From: an uncultured Gammaproteobacteria bacterium | Lineage (GTDB): Bacteria > Pseudomonadota > Gammaproteobacteria > SZUA-229 | Assembly: GCA_965602855.1 (NCBI GenBank) | Contig: CBFCZV010000011.1 | Coordinates: 453 to 64,452, forward strand | DNA length: 64,000 bases | Direction of reading: 5' to 3' | In this document: positions 32,098 through 44,783 of the stretch, piece by piece | Layout: each line of letters starts with the position of its first letter | Position numbering within the stretch: the stretch's first letter is position 1 | Notes under the pieces: generated by a model | The model's database searches: none | What the model saw: only the letters and a program-made list of their open reading frames with translations | Told to the model about the DNA's origin: nothing | Position numbers and translations under genes: made by a program

Positions 32098-34494
32098 CTA
32101 TCCATCAACATCCCTCACCATCTCATCATGATAGTACTTGTACTTCGGCCGCGCCTCGATGCCATGGCATTTAACACAGAACGTATCTTTGGCGCCCCGG
32201 CGGCGTAAAAAACTATTAAGTACATTGCCTTCCTGATTCTCAAACTCTGTCCGTTCAATTACTTCTTCTTTCTTGTTCGAACCATGTTCAGGCTGCCAAC
32301 GATGAGGATTATGACAGGTCACACATGCAATACTGCCAAACTCTTCTATTTCATTTTTCGCATTCACCAGCGGCATGACTTTAGCATCAGATCGCAGTAC
32401 AAGATCTTCAAAAGGATGGCTAAAGAGTTCAACTGTCCTCTTTTCAGCTACGCCTTTATCCTGGTGACAGTTCATGCAGATACGGTCTCGCTCAAGCGGT
32501 TTTTCCTTACCTTTTTCCTTATATTTTCTGCGCTCACCTGCATATAAAAAATCAGTTTGTTCATCACCTTTATGCAGGCTGTGGCAGGATCCGCAAACAC
32601 CAGCCTGTTCAGGCTTCTGATCAAAATGATTTTCATGATTTTTGGCGGTGACACGTAGATCATGATCGGTATTAGCTACCTGCTCATATTCTTCATGACA
32701 GAAACTGCATAGTTTGCCATCACGGTTATCAAACTTAAGCAGGGCAGTGCCTTCTTTACCATTGTGTAGATCATGACAGGTCAGGCAGGTAATTTTTTTA
32801 ATTTCTTCTTCACCAACCTTGACGGATTTTTCCAGCTCAATATTGACTGGATGTATACCTTTTTTGCGTGCATCTTTTTCATCTTTGGCGTGCTGGCGTT
32901 CGTGGCAGGCTGTGCACAGTTGTGCATCATCAATTTCTAGTGGTGTCAGTGCTTCATTGGCTGCACCGTGAATCTGGTGGCAGCTCTGGCAAATCATCTG
33001 TTTATCACCACCCAGACTTAGGCCTTGTTCTAACAGTTTCTTTGGCATGCCTTTATGCAAATGTTCATCTACGGCGTAACCTTCTGTCTCACCTGCGGGC
33101 GGCTGTTTGAGATAAACCCCCACTGGATGATTAATACCTTTTAAGGGGAATTTTTTGTTTAGCGTACTGGCCAGTTTTGATTCATGACACTGCTGGCACA
33201 GGTCACCATCCTTGTTCAATACTCGCAGCCATGGATTGGCGTGCTCGCTGTATAAAGTATCGGCTTCATCGATGTCTGCCGAATGTGGGGTATGGCAACT
33301 GCCGCAACTGAGCTGTTTTTCTTTATTGTGGTTATCGCTCAATAAAGGAAATGCTTCGGGTATTTCATCCTCTCGTTTTTTGTCTTTCTGTGTTTTATCT
33401 TTTTCACGCTGATGATGAATGTCGGGGTGCTGCTCACCATGGCCAATAGAACGACGTGAATCTAGAACCGCACCGTGGTGACAGCTATAACACATGCGCT
33501 CGCTGGCCACAGGTGGCACATCTTCATGGGAAATCTTTCCTGCTTTATATTCATCCGACCATTCCAGATGGCAGCTAATGCAGTTTTTTTGTGATGTCTC
33601 TAATGTTGCTTGCTGCGGTATTGTTGCCTGTATTTCTGAAAGCTGGAATACCTCAACCCGGTTTTCCAGTGCATCGACAACATAAAGCTTGTCCTGCTCG
33701 ATGCTTAGTGCAACTGGTGCTGAAAACTTGATGGGATTCTTTTTTTCATCCATTAAAAACCCATCAAACTCACCATCATAAAAAACTGAAATCGTACCGC
33801 GATAAGCATCACTCACCAGCATGTGCCGTTCTCTTAAGGCCAGTCCATTGGGGCGATACAGTTCGCCATCTGCCAGACCGAAGCGACCTGCCTGACCAAA
33901 TCGTCGACCTTGCTGATTAAATCCCTGTACCCTCGCATTGATGACATCGACTACCTGCAGATAGCCATCACGGTCATGCTTTATCTGAAATGGAAATAAA
34001 AATTCAGAAGCCAGCTCACCACGCTTGCCCCAGCACAGCAGTTCTTTGCCCGTACTGGCATCGATACGACAGACACGGTGGTTGCGTCGATCACTCCAGC
34101 TAATAATACCCTCGCTAATTGTCAGTGCCACCGGCTCTGCTGGCTTCTCACCAGACAGGGGCAAATGCTTGATCAGTCGCCCAGCCAAATCAAACATGCT
34201 GATGCGGTGATTGCCCGTATCAGCCAGATAAACTTTATCCTCACTGATAGCTATACCCATGGGTAAGTTCAATCCCGCAGACTGGCCAAAACTGAAAGAC
34301 CATGTTGCATTTTCATCAAACACGACGACCCGATTATTAACACCATCTAAAACATAGGCATGGCCGTCTTTACTAATGGCCACGTCACTGGGCTGATCCA
34401 GGCCGCCTTCCAGCGTTGTAATATGATCTGCCTGCAGTGCTGCGTTTGCATTAACCGCAAACAAGGCGCATATCAGGAAAAAAACTGTTCTCAC
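32098..34494 (-). CDS. NHL-repeat beta-propeller fused to a dodecaheme c-type cytochrome (periplasmic or secreted)
   Basis: 798 aa with signal peptide (AVNANA). Six NHL-like repeats (e.g. YVLDGVNNRVVVFD, YLADTGNHRISMFD, YVVDALENRVEVFQ), then 12 CxxCH. GTG start overlaps the upstream stop by 4 nt. Confidence 0.85.
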   Translation of the reverse strand: MRTVFFLICALFAVNANAALQADHITTLEGGLDQPSDVAISKDGHAYVLDGVNNRVVVFDENATWSFSFGQSAGLNLPMGIAISEDKVYLADTGNHRISMFDLAGRLIKHLPLSGEKPAEPVALTISEGIISWSDRRNHRVCRIDASTGKELLCWGKRGELASEFLFPFQIKHDRDGYLQVVDVINARVQGFNQQGRRFGQAGRFGLADGELYRPNGLALRERHMLVSDAYRGTISVFYDGEFDGFLMDEKKNPIKFSAPVALSIEQDKLYVVDALENRVEVFQLSEIQATIPQQATLETSQKNCISCHLEWSDEYKAGKISHEDVPPVASERMCYSCHHGAVLDSRRSIGHGEQHPDIHHQREKDKTQKDKKREDEIPEAFPLLSDNHNKEKQLSCGSCHTPHSADIDEADTLYSEHANPWLRVLNKDGDLCQQCHESKLASTLNKKFPLKGINHPVGVYLKQPPAGETEGYAVDEHLHKGMPKKLLEQGLSLGGDKQMICQSCHQIHGAANEALTPLEIDDAQLCTACHERQHAKDEKDARKKGIHPVNIELEKSVKVGEEEIKKITCLTCHDLHNGKEGTALLKFDNRDGKLCSFCHEEYEQVANTDHDLRVTAKNHENHFDQKPEQAGVCGSCHSLHKGDEQTDFLYAGERRKYKEKGKEKPLERDRICMNCHQDKGVAEKRTVELFSHPFEDLVLRSDAKVMPLVNAKNEIEEFGSIACVTCHNPHRWQPEHGSNKKEEVIERTEFENQEGNVLNSFLRRRGAKDTFCVKCHGIEARPKYKYYHDEMVRDVDG

Positions 34495-35294
34495 TTGAGC
34501 AAATCCTTGATGCGAATTTGTTGATCATCTTTTTTGAAGCGTGTGAAGAAACGTGCAATCGTGTTTCTCTGAATTTTTTTCGCCTGCTCGGGAGATGCGC
34601 CCAGTGCTGCCAGATCCAGCATGGGGTTATCATCACCATGGCAACGCTGACATTTCGGGCCTTTTTCTTCTAGCGGTGCGTGCAGGCGTGCTTTAAGTTT
34701 GGCCTTGTCATTTTCATTGGCATCCTGCCAGTCCTGTTTTATTCTTTTAGAAAAATCATCATCGCTAAATATTAAAGCCAGCTCTTCAATATAAAACGGA
34801 GTGATTTTTGCACCTATCTGTGGCACCAGCATCAACTGTTGTTCTGGCTTATCTTTTTTGTTTTCATCCTGCTTCGGAACACGGGCAGCAATTTTGTTGC
34901 CTGCATTAGCACCATCAAAAGCCAGCCACGCATATTCCATGTCAATATCATCAGGCCGCATATGACAGGTTTCACAGGCAATATAACGACTGTGCCTGTT
35001 CATAAAGGTGCGACTACGTTCGTTCTTTCTGTGTGGCAGGCTCTGATGGCAGTTCGTGCAAATCGCCTGCTTTGTAGTTTTCTGTTGCTCAGCACGGTGA
35101 TGAAACACCGGTACGGAAATATTTTCCTGCAACTTGATTTCCTTATGATCTTTTATTTTCTTAAGGGCCTCATCAACTTGCTTTTCACTGGGTGCGGCCT
35201 GGGTTACCTGCTGCTGGTAGAACGGTACGGCCAGCAGTTGCTGGGGCAACAATAATGAACATATAAATAAAAATACTAACCAGTGCTTATTCAT
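34491..35294 (-). CDS. triheme c-type cytochrome
   Basis: Start set at MNKHWLVFLF (signal peptide); ATGAATAA overlaps the upstream stop by 8 nt. Motifs CTNCH, CETCH, CQRCH. Confidence 0.8.
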   Translation of the reverse strand: MNKHWLVFLFICSLLLPQQLLAVPFYQQQVTQAAPSEKQVDEALKKIKDHKEIKLQENISVPVFHHRAEQQKTTKQAICTNCHQSLPHRKNERSRTFMNRHSRYIACETCHMRPDDIDMEYAWLAFDGANAGNKIAARVPKQDENKKDKPEQQLMLVPQIGAKITPFYIEELALIFSDDDFSKRIKQDWQDANENDKAKLKARLHAPLEEKGPKCQRCHGDDNPMLDLAALGASPEQAKKIQRNTIARFFTRFKKDDQQIRIKDLLK

Positions 35295-44508: not shown

Positions 44509-44528
44509 TACAATCATCTCTCTTATTT

Positions 44529-44783
44529 TTATGCAACTGCACCTGTAAGGCATTCATACTTAGCGAGCAATTGACTCTCTGACTCGTTGTTATCTGGATC
44601 CTCGATGATGCAGTCCACAGGACAAACATCAATACACTGTGAGATTTCAAAGTGACCGACACATTCTGTACATAGCGCTGACTCAATAACATAAACATCG
44701 TCACCCATTGAGATAGCCTCATTAGGACACTCAGGCTCACAAACATCGCAATTTATGCAATCTTCAGTAATCATTAATGACAT
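44529..44783 (-). CDS. yfhL: YfhL-type 2[4Fe-4S] ferredoxin
   Basis: 84 aa. [24 protein letters not shown]...[21 protein letters not shown] closely parallels E. coli YfhL. Its stop is 20 nt upstream of the next start. Confidence 0.85.

Follow-up and report, generated by a model that had tools for sequence, protein, structure and literature searches.

A conserved cluster of multiheme cytochrome, beta-barrel and NapH-like genes in marine sulfur-oxidising bacteria: a candidate trans-envelope electron conduit

The DNA described here is a 64-kb window (64,000 nucleotides, the whole stretch that was analysed) of contig CBFCZV010000011.1, from an uncultured gammaproteobacterium of the SZUA-229 lineage. 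It contains an operon of ten open reading frames (ORFs), all on the minus strand, at 32098-44783. A first-pass annotation made from the letters alone had picked out these genes as a possible extracellular electron transfer (EET) system; all ten ORFs are found at the coordinates it gave, which were recomputed within the window (Table 1). The operon encodes a ferredoxin, a small membrane protein, a heme-free beta-barrel and seven multiheme cytochromes (MHCs), one of which is fused to a NapH-like polyferredoxin and another to an NHL beta-propeller. Signal peptides are evident on all of the cytochromes and on the barrel.

Table 1. Genes of the cluster and candidate operator elements. Positions are those of the window unless a related locus (L number) is named; the last column gives presence among metagenomic loci, counted only in loci that reach the expected position.
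Feature	Position	Strand	Remarks	Present in loci
YfhL-type ferredoxin, 84 aa	44529..44783	-	no signal peptide; first operon gene in this clade	9/30
Octaheme cytochrome, 960 aa	41626..44508	-	signal peptide; 7 CxxCH + 1 CX4CH	31/32
Membrane hairpin protein, 76 aa	41309..41539	-	four cysteines between two hydrophobic segments	37/40
Outer-membrane beta-barrel (predicted), 423 aa	40078..41349	-	signal peptide; heme-free, no cysteine	38/41
Heptaheme cytochrome, 210 aa	39446..40078	-	signal peptide; 7 CxxCH	49/49
Octaheme lipoprotein, 330 aa	38457..39449	-	8 CxxCH; lipobox LLTAC/G (cleavage at the slash)	55/55
Hexaheme periplasmic cytochrome, 300 aa	37558..38460	-	signal peptide; 6 CxxCH	57/57
Inner-membrane NapH-MHC fusion, 755 aa	35287..37554	-	Fe-S motifs and hemes	
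Triheme (c7-like) periplasmic cytochrome, 267 aa	34491..35294	-	3 CxxCH	54/57
NHL-12-heme protein, 798 aa	32098..34494	-	signal peptide; 12 CxxCH; last operon gene	37/39
Candidate operator	44866..44895	-	tandem inverted repeats GTGAC-N5-GTCAC and GCGAC-N5-GTCAC	
GCGAC-N5-GTCGC-type double palindrome	L003 6193-6222			
GCGAC-N5-GTCGC-type double palindrome	L005 2108-2127			
GCGAC-N5-GTCGC-type double palindrome	L016 2390-2419			
GCGAC-N5-GTCGC-type double palindrome, two copies	L006 6315-6344, 19220-19249			
GCGAC-N5-GTCGC-type double palindrome, two copies	L054 2167-2196, 16573-16602			
GCGAC-N5-GTCGC-type double palindrome, two copies	L063 2502-2531, 16483-16512			

The genes are closely packed. 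The ferredoxin gene is followed after 20 nt by the 960-aa cytochrome gene (with ATG 44508 taken as its start; an alternative ATG lies at 44553), and 86 nt separate the latter from the gene for the 76-aa protein. The 76-aa gene and the barrel gene overlap by 41 nt, or by 35 nt with the start used in public gene calls, which is two codons downstream of ATG 41349. Barrel and 7-heme genes overlap by 1 nt, and the 7-heme/8-heme and 8-heme/6-heme junctions by 4 nt each. A gap of 3 nt lies between the 6-heme and NapH-MHC genes; the NapH-MHC and triheme genes overlap by 8 nt (start of the triheme gene taken at 35294; an alternative ATG is at 35333), and the triheme and NHL-12-heme genes by 4 nt. Six of the nine junctions are therefore overlaps and a seventh is the 3-nt gap. 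The tight coupling described at first pass holds, although two junctions (+86 and -41) had been left out and one given as -1 is really -4.

Over the ten proteins there are 50 CxxCH motifs. One of them, at residue 260 of the 755-aa protein, falls within a CxxCxxCxxxC Fe-S motif that is invariant and cytoplasmic, so that 49 are of the heme type, in agreement with the first count (12+3+6+6+8+7+7). Three CX3CH or CX4CH candidates had also been listed; they are invariant in family alignments of 31 sequences (NapH-MHC fusion) and 36 sequences (960-aa cytochrome), and about 52 hemes are thus predicted. Heme number per ortholog is conserved, and all heme motifs are invariant where alignments were made. 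In Pfam and NCBIfam the cytochromes match generic heme-domain models only. The gathering score of one of these, PF22113 (generic MtrC/MtrF domain II/IV), is passed or equalled by five of the cytochromes.

That the operon is a single unit, as first proposed, is borne out by its gene neighbourhood in other genomes. A metagenome scan anchored on the NapH-MHC fusion alignment yielded 80 further loci. Colinearity on one strand is found in 83 of the 84 non-redundant metagenomic loci, and synteny holds down to approximately 25-50% identity (identities range from 25% to 88%) with different genomic flanks. Whereas the other nine genes are near-constant, the ferredoxin gene is at its expected position in only 9 of the 30 loci that reach it; the module is thus one conserved, co-inherited nine-gene core, and the ferredoxin is a clade-specific accessory gene. 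It is absent within 10 kb of the cluster in L009, L010 and L011 (Candidatus Thiodiazotropha, Candidatus Venteria and a Deltaproteobacteria metagenome-assembled genome (MAG), respectively). Of the ten-gene path outlined in the first-pass annotation, the predicted stretch from the inner membrane through periplasm and outer membrane, and probably on to the surface, is retained, whereas the cytoplasmic end is specific to the clade. The genes flanking the cluster in the window (encoding 325, 541 and 200 aa and others) were considered as module parts and rejected, as they are not conserved beside the module elsewhere.

The module is widespread in marine sulfur oxidisers; it is neither rare nor confined to the source genome. 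Carriers named in the databases include Ca. Thiodiazotropha taylori, endosymbionts of Seepiophila, Lamellibrachia and Galathealinum, Ca. Venteria ishoeyi, Ca. Halobeggiatoa, Sedimenticola, Polarisedimenticolaceae, Thiotrichales and Chromatiales, together with a Colwellia MAG, Deltaproteobacteria MAGs and vent metagenomes. In every carrier the proteins are annotated only generically. On a 1.08-Mb metagenomic contig (L013, 1-9703) the module lies beside genes for flavocytochrome c sulfide dehydrogenase, a DsrE-like protein and a rhodanese, and also beside a Crp/FNR-family regulator and a cytochrome b; this neighbourhood fits carriage by a sulfur oxidiser.

The 755-aa protein was first described as a NapH-like polyferredoxin fused to a multiheme domain, and its motifs, its topology and a passing Fer4_5 match (50.6 bits) agree with that description. 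Its N-terminal 280 residues have the NapH layout, with four transmembrane (TM) segments, CX3C(P) motifs and two cytoplasmic [4Fe-4S] motifs; these are followed by TM5, a periplasmic 8-heme domain (six CxxCH, one CX3CH and one CX4CH), TM6 and a Lys-rich tail, which gives six hydrophobic segments in all. All of the Fe-S and heme cysteines are invariant among the 31 sequences. It scores 72.5 bits against TIGR02163 (cutoff 213) and 65.6 bits, also below cutoff, against PRK09477. Since the TIGR02163 score is under the cutoff, the protein is classed by sequence as NapH-like and not as a NapH ortholog. Its relatives form 228 clusters, named only as 4Fe-4S binding, polyferredoxin or NapH. In the Deltaproteobacteria MAG (L011, 10001-12907) one polypeptide of 968 aa, with 10 CxxCH motifs, combines the NapH-MHC and triheme proteins, the triheme part being joined at the C-terminus of the fusion; the triheme cytochrome is therefore probably a physical partner of the NapH-MHC protein.

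The ferredoxin is of the 2x[4Fe-4S] type and matches NF033683 over its full length (124.3 bits, cutoff 86), which confirms it as a YfhL-type protein; it lacks a signal peptide and is predicted to be cytoplasmic. The 76-aa protein matches no known family among the Pfam and NCBIfam models. It has the signature PW..G.G.A ... C-X8-C-X2-C-X2-C ... W, invariant in 40 distinct orthologs, with the four cysteines between the two hydrophobic segments; a membrane-proximal metal or Fe-S site is possible. The 798-aa protein comprises an N-terminal six-bladed NHL beta-propeller and a 12-heme domain, and its orthologs have 12-14 hemes. Against solved structures it matches NHL propellers only, plus, weakly, one multiheme cytochrome (6qvm); profile and structure-sequence searches both find the propeller, so the NHL-MHC fusion recognised by eye is upheld.

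Three adjacent genes encode what may be the outer-membrane part of the system. The barrel, which was called barrel-like and heme-free at first pass, does lack cysteine, and its AlphaFold 2 (AF2) model, built on 22 homologs, has about 22 strands (predicted local distance difference test score (pLDDT) 79.6; predicted template modelling score (pTM) 0.68). Foldseek matches this model to usher translocation pores and OprD/Occ porins with a probability of 1.0. The protein itself matches nothing in Pfam or NCBIfam, its family profile has no PDB sequence match at E<=10, and none of 49 family members matches an MtrB/PioB model. An exhaustive hidden Markov model (HMM) search of 1.84 billion representatives finds 92 clusters of the family, whose full-length members have about 380-470 aa, and meets no larger superfamily. 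A word-indexed search recovers 23 clusters of barrel relatives; on their contigs all ten genes recur in unchanged order, while the flanks are unrelated. Judged by its sequences, this is a small family that stands by itself. In the contexts that were read, the barrel gene lies between the 76-aa gene and the 7-heme gene and overlaps the latter. The 7-heme protein, whose gene is translationally coupled to that of the barrel, has seven CxxCH motifs in every ortholog; it is a candidate trans-outer-membrane heme wire, and the modelled barrel is a candidate sheath for it.

The third member of the trio is the 8-heme lipoprotein. Its lipobox and eight CxxCH motifs are conserved in the orthologs inspected, as expected from its original description, and the residue at +2 is Gly in all of these except L006 (Asn), which is an outer-membrane-type signal. 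It matches PF22113 at 42 bits and also PF09699. It is a candidate partner of the barrel complex, in the outer membrane or on the surface. Single-sequence searches of the PDB give no solved-structure relative for the 7-heme, 8-heme or 960-aa proteins.

The 960-aa cytochrome starts with a signal peptide, and its C-terminal region is rich in beta structure; a Ser/Gly linker and a tail of GGG, hydrophobic helix and RRR (...SSGGGSADYVLLIGMFVMTLVGCGRRRIRV) follow. The tail resembles a GlyGly-CTERM tag (Gly-Gly, hydrophobic helix, basic cluster). All eight heme motifs of the family are invariant in the 36-sequence alignment. Eight further His residues are invariant or nearly so, enough for bis-His ligation of all eight hemes, and the protein thus fits electron transfer better than catalysis. 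Its relatives form 426 clusters named only 'cytochrome C' or hypothetical, and the family profile finds no solved-structure relative.

The tag is GlyGly-like in most lineages; tails similar to that of the 960-aa protein are present in the L005, L009 and L010 orthologs. Those of L010 and L005 match the SVAGG GlyGly-CTERM family below threshold (E 0.017 and 0.41); TIGR03501 itself was never among the output, and such short models are easily lost to search filters. In Ca. Venteria a rhombosortase gene (TIGR03902, 127 bits, cutoff 84; L010 455-1030) is directly upstream of the 960-aa ortholog. The L003 ortholog carries a JDVT-CTERM tag instead (9383-9517; 42.7 bits, cutoff 27), and that of the Deltaproteobacteria MAG has a different hydrophobic tail (L011 5233-5367). 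The rhombosortase neighbour and the swap to JDVT-CTERM in another lineage suggest that a C-terminal envelope-sorting signal on the large cytochrome is a conserved requirement, the type of which varies by lineage. In Vibrio, rhombosortase substrates are processed and then displayed on the surface via the type II secretion system. By analogy of motif layout, which is as originally described, the 960-aa protein may be anchored at the surface; the strongest support for this is the Ca. Venteria rhombosortase.

A candidate operator lies in the 183-nt region upstream of the ferredoxin gene. These tandem boxes are a new observation of this analysis. The element has one match in the window compared with none in 100 shuffles of the window, and it recurs in all loci that have the ferredoxin gene, approximately 100 nt ahead of that gene, and only in such versions of the cluster. 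It is abutted by a promoter-like TCCACA-N16-TATGAT at 44864-44837, which is weak; such sites are no commoner here than expected by chance. A second copy of the element follows the last gene in L006, L054, L055, L057 and L063, ahead of AhpC-like and ResA/TlpA-like genes, and no copy other than those at these positions occurs in the 1.19 Mb of DNA examined. The boxes fit GCGNC-N5-GNCGC, the consensus for RegA/PrrA-type regulators. In L006, L016, L057-59 and L063 the divergent upstream neighbours are genes for a histidine kinase and a response regulator, the best family matches of which are RegB/PrrB/ActS and RegA/PrrA/ActR, both below cutoff (271 versus 350 bits and 187 versus 250 bits); the 64-kb window has no RegB/RegA-like pair. 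The conserved boxes and the RegB/RegA-like genes adjoining related loci suggest that the operon is controlled by the redox state of the respiratory chain.

Comparison with known systems places the cluster close to, but outside, the described porin-cytochrome conduits. New clusters of this kind are steadily reported from other phyla, for example the peat EET clusters. A Pfam/TIGRFAM profile search of the ten proteins puts no component at the curated threshold of the Mtr, NapC/NrfH or Otr models. The initial impression that nothing here resembles MtrA/B/C, CymA/NapC or Cyc2 therefore holds at the level of curated thresholds; for MtrC it is too strong, in view of the matches to the generic PF22113. 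MtrCAB, MtoAB and PioAB share with the present cluster the logic of a barrel that sheaths a heme wire and a lipoprotein cytochrome at the surface. The Mtr/Pio barrel has 26 strands and about 650-700 aa, whereas the one here has about 22 strands and 423 aa. The DmsE/MtrA model (TIGR03508, cutoff 192) gives at best 56.8 bits with the NHL-12-heme protein and 40.3 bits with the 8-heme protein, and nothing with the 7-heme protein; MtrCAB has a decaheme protein and this operon has none. OmcA/MtrC (TIGR03507, cutoff 209) gives 23.4 bits with the 960-aa protein, and the PDB searches give no match to MtrC, OmcA or UndA. Entry at the inner membrane is NapH-like here and through CymA/NapC in Shewanella. 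PF03264 of the CymA/NapC family matches only a 40-residue fragment of the 8-heme lipoprotein (profile 36-76 of 174, 28.5 bits) and reaches 19 bits on the triheme protein; NrfH (TIGR03153, cutoff 134) reaches at most 21 bits. Cyc2 is a porin with an N-terminal monoheme cytochrome; the barrel here has no cysteine, hence no CxxCH and no heme site, and is thus not of the Cyc2 type.

A parallel is also found in Geobacter. In ombB-omaB-omcB, genes for a barrel, a small periplasmic cytochrome and a lipoprotein cytochrome are adjacent. Like the trio here, the Geobacter Pcc systems (OmbB/OmaB/OmcB; ExtABCD) combine a heme-free barrel of about 400-450 aa with a small MHC and a lipoprotein MHC encoded side by side, and the predicted role of both is electron transfer through the outer membrane; in the present operon the barrel gene comes first and overlaps the 7-heme gene by 1 nt, which in turn overlaps the lipoprotein gene by 4 nt. 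OmaB has eight hemes compared with seven here, and the Geobacter lipoprotein has 12 compared with eight. The sole match to a Geobacter-family model is NF041028 on the NHL-12-heme protein (53 bits, cutoff 325), and the Pcc proteins were compared by description only. The NapH-heme fusion, the NHL-heme fusion, the four-cysteine mini-protein and the sorting-tagged octaheme protein are not part of Pcc or Ext.

PCC3, likewise predicted to be a conduit, has four parts (porin, periplasmic MHC, extracellular MHC and inner-membrane protein) and is also found in gammaproteobacterial tubeworm symbionts; its porins have up to 42 predicted strands, and its cytochromes 21-27 (periplasmic) and 10-85 hemes (He et al. 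2017, PMC5566968; Hoover et al. 2023, PMC10734462). Here, in contrast, about 22 strands make up the barrel and seven proteins share the hemes, with 3-12 each, and PCC3 is not described with a polyferredoxin or NHL fusion. The Uet system of Ca. Tenderia comprises an undecaheme UetJ, a peptidyl-prolyl isomerase (UetB), a cupredoxin (UetF), three triheme proteins, separate NHL proteins and a 28-strand UetC (bioRxiv 10.1101/2022.05.06.490989). No isomerase, cupredoxin or 11-heme protein is present among the ten genes here; it should be added that Uet is set apart by its description and not by sequence. The DFE_0448-0465 clusters of D. ferrophilus are multigene cytochrome clusters with no evident porin (PMC9769857). 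Uet and DFE resemble the present cluster in their NHL beta-propeller proteins, triheme c7-like cytochromes and (in Uet) a barrel, and for both a part in the extracellular electron exchange of marine chemolithotrophs has been proposed. A NapH-heme fusion, a four-cysteine mini-protein and a sorting-tagged octaheme protein are absent from both, and in the present operon NHL is fused to 12 hemes.

Among NapH, NosR and CcoG proteins, the 755-aa protein keeps the four TM segments, the CX3CP motifs and the two C-terminal cytoplasmic [4Fe-4S] motifs. It resembles NosR in that a NapH-type module is fused to a periplasmic redox domain, which in NosR is a flavin mononucleotide domain and here is an 8-heme domain re-anchored by a sixth helix. 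Nap operons with NapF likewise have an added cytoplasmic ferredoxin, as does the cluster in this clade; no NapA, NapB, NapC, NapG or NosZ gene is near it. The full-text literature searched holds no description of the gene set, in agreement with the earlier judgement that it is not a described system; an earlier account outside that literature is possible. A Desulfatiglans paper was rejected as an earlier description ('NapH' there refers to strain NaphS2), as were a Thiodiazotropha expression study and an account of Thiomargarita. Also rejected as the same system were a Methylobacter Mto-like cluster, a SEEP-SRB operon with 16/26-heme proteins, an account of vent-chimney Gammaproteobacteria, and EET clusters of peat.

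The cluster probably encodes a porin-cytochrome conduit that by itself takes electrons across the whole cell envelope, and its protein families are undescribed. From the gene content, the motifs, the barrel fold, the strict co-inheritance and the sorting-tag context we infer how the parts would assemble, which would be exposed at the surface and how electrons would pass. The NapH-like quinol-dehydrogenase/polyferredoxin module would exchange electrons with quinol, and possibly also with ferredoxin. The electrons would then move by way of the fused 8-heme domain and the triheme partner to the 6-heme and NHL-12-heme cytochromes, which would relay or store them in the periplasm. The 7-heme protein, threaded through the 22-strand barrel, would carry them to the 8-heme lipoprotein, and the 960-aa octaheme protein, anchored via its rhombosortase-processed C-terminal tag, would extend the path on the surface. 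This reading is supported by the barrel, 7-heme and lipoprotein genes, which adjoin or overlap as in Geobacter ombB-omaB-omcB, and by the match of the barrel model to large translocation pores.

Several observations weigh against it. For the 960-aa protein the AF2 model is of only moderate quality (pLDDT 67), and no fold match to it is significant. Those GlyGly-CTERM-type models that came up do not match its tail in the window at E<=1, and no rhombosortase or type II secretion gene is present in the 64-kb window; without processing of its tail, the protein would stay fixed to the inner membrane. The ferredoxin gene is missing from most loci, and in Ca. Venteria the last two module genes are not adjacent. 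The carriers found are MAGs or symbionts throughout, and the module is known from genes alone. Tail and missing sortase would both suit a periplasmic or inner-membrane network for electron storage and redox buffering (a 'capacitor'), with no passage across the outer membrane; the barrel would then be an ordinary porin or assembly factor, and the 960-aa protein would be held at the inner membrane by its C-terminal helix. The 52 or so hemes would provide a large storage capacity, RegBA-type control fits redox homeostasis, and the fold matches of the barrel are generic. We nevertheless regard such a buffer as unlikely: the barrel family (92 clusters) occurs only in this form of about 400 aa, its gene is set between the 76-aa and 7-heme genes and overlaps the latter, the lipobox of the cytochrome lipoprotein is of the outer-membrane type with Gly at +2, and a rhombosortase adjoins the L010 ortholog. 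That several unrelated operons merely lie side by side is very improbable. The 86-nt gap after the 960-aa gene and the dispensability of the ferredoxin in most lineages would allow this, but the colinear single-strand order of 83 of 84 loci between 25% and 88% identity with unrelated flanks, the overlapping or nearly abutting junctions, and the fusion of two components in L011 all contradict it, and the synteny statistics exclude chance adjacency.

The cluster could instead encode a respiratory enzyme for a soluble sulfur or nitrogen compound, with the 960-aa protein as a catalytic Otr/MccA/ONR-like reductase or oxidase to which the rest feed electrons, as in Nap, Nrf, Otr and Sir/Mcc. NapH relatives do serve soluble-substrate reductases, the carriers are sulfur oxidisers, and sulfur genes (for flavocytochrome c sulfide dehydrogenase, DsrE and rhodanese) are near the module in L013. 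The 960-aa protein has eight hemes, one with an unusual CX4CH; its residues 335-501, and only these, match the octaheme tetrathionate reductase model TIGR04315 weakly (39.1 bits, E 4.5e-10), and its fold search brings up a single cytochrome, Otr of Shewanella (1sp3), at E 0.033 and a probability of 0.38. This score is far under the cutoff of 375, however, there is no PDB match by sequence or profile, and the invariant His residues suffice for two-histidine ligation of every heme. A barrel, heme wire and lipoprotein would be needless for a periplasmic substrate, yet they are kept in 38/41 to 55/55 loci, and the C-terminal sorting tags point to the envelope surface. An enzyme of this sort thus seems a poor candidate, about as improbable as the redox buffer.

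If the cluster is a conduit, the direction of flow is only slightly in favour of outward transfer, from quinol to an extracellular acceptor, as a sink when O2 or nitrate is scarce. Characterised NapH-family proteins pass quinol electrons to periplasmic partners; this delivery and the apparent redox control of the operon are the grounds for the preference. Uptake from sulfide minerals, Fe(II) or cathodes is possible and equally compatible with the anatomy. A bolder version of the conduit, for which we see a slim chance, is a complete wire from cytoplasm to surface that bypasses or parallels the quinone pool. Here the ferredoxin would dock on the NapH-like [4Fe-4S] motifs and the four-cysteine mini-protein would bridge to the hemes by supplying a membrane-embedded metal or Fe-S centre, so that low-potential electrons would pass directly between ferredoxin and an extracellular solid, host or partner cell. 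NapH-type domains have no known transmembrane cofactor, which makes the link from ferredoxin to heme speculative and is a further point on the negative side. Were such a wire to exist, it would be a new route by which symbionts and giant sulfur bacteria could shed or gain reducing power.

In many versions of the cluster a gene for a small AhpC/TSA-like protein comes next, and in several of them also one for a ResA/TlpA-like thiol-disulfide oxidoreductase (L006 19328-20486; L054, L057, L063, L011, L022, L045); in L006, L011, L022 and L045 an 89-aa signal-peptide protein is encoded between the two. These downstream genes may be dedicated cytochrome-maturation helpers. They are absent from the window, where their sole relative is CcmG. 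A complete ccmABCDEFGHI cytochrome c maturation operon is present at 49592-56572, on the strand of the cluster and about 5 kb upstream of it, flanked by DsbA (48914-49549) and a diheme c4/PdsA-like cytochrome (56679-57323).

Elsewhere in the window, a sensor kinase and an OmpR-type regulator at 1189-3206 precede two tandem triads (3514-5135 and 5288-6870), each consisting of a diheme cytochrome DHC (PF09626), DUF1924 and an ORF of about 190 aa; one further ORF lies at 7149-7742. The region 18000-24000 has a low GC (guanine plus cytosine) content of 0.39-0.40, compared with about 0.45 elsewhere, and several short unannotated ORFs. It includes an insertion sequence-type transposase (rve integrase core) at 19070-19894 with a small upstream ORF at 18720-19055. 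At 59717-63264 the gene for a di-haem cytochrome c peroxidase (CCP/MauG family) overlaps that for a DAHL-PAS-GGDEF-EAL protein by 4 nt, which pairs a peroxide- or redox-linked enzyme with a cyclic di-GMP turnover protein. There are no rRNA or tRNA genes in the 64-kb window.

If the conduit reading is true, many ecologically dominant marine sulfur oxidisers own a dedicated EET machine that was missed by all family models tried. The carriers concerned would be lucinid-clam and tubeworm symbionts, relatives of Beggiatoaceae and Sedimenticola-like bacteria, and models of their anaerobic survival, their interaction with sulfide minerals and their exchange with hosts would change. A new inner-membrane entry module (NapH-type Fe-S centres with hemes) and a new small barrel family would be added to the parts of which conduits are made. 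The nine-gene synteny is a ready marker set for surveys, and the RegA-like operator is a testable regulatory handle.

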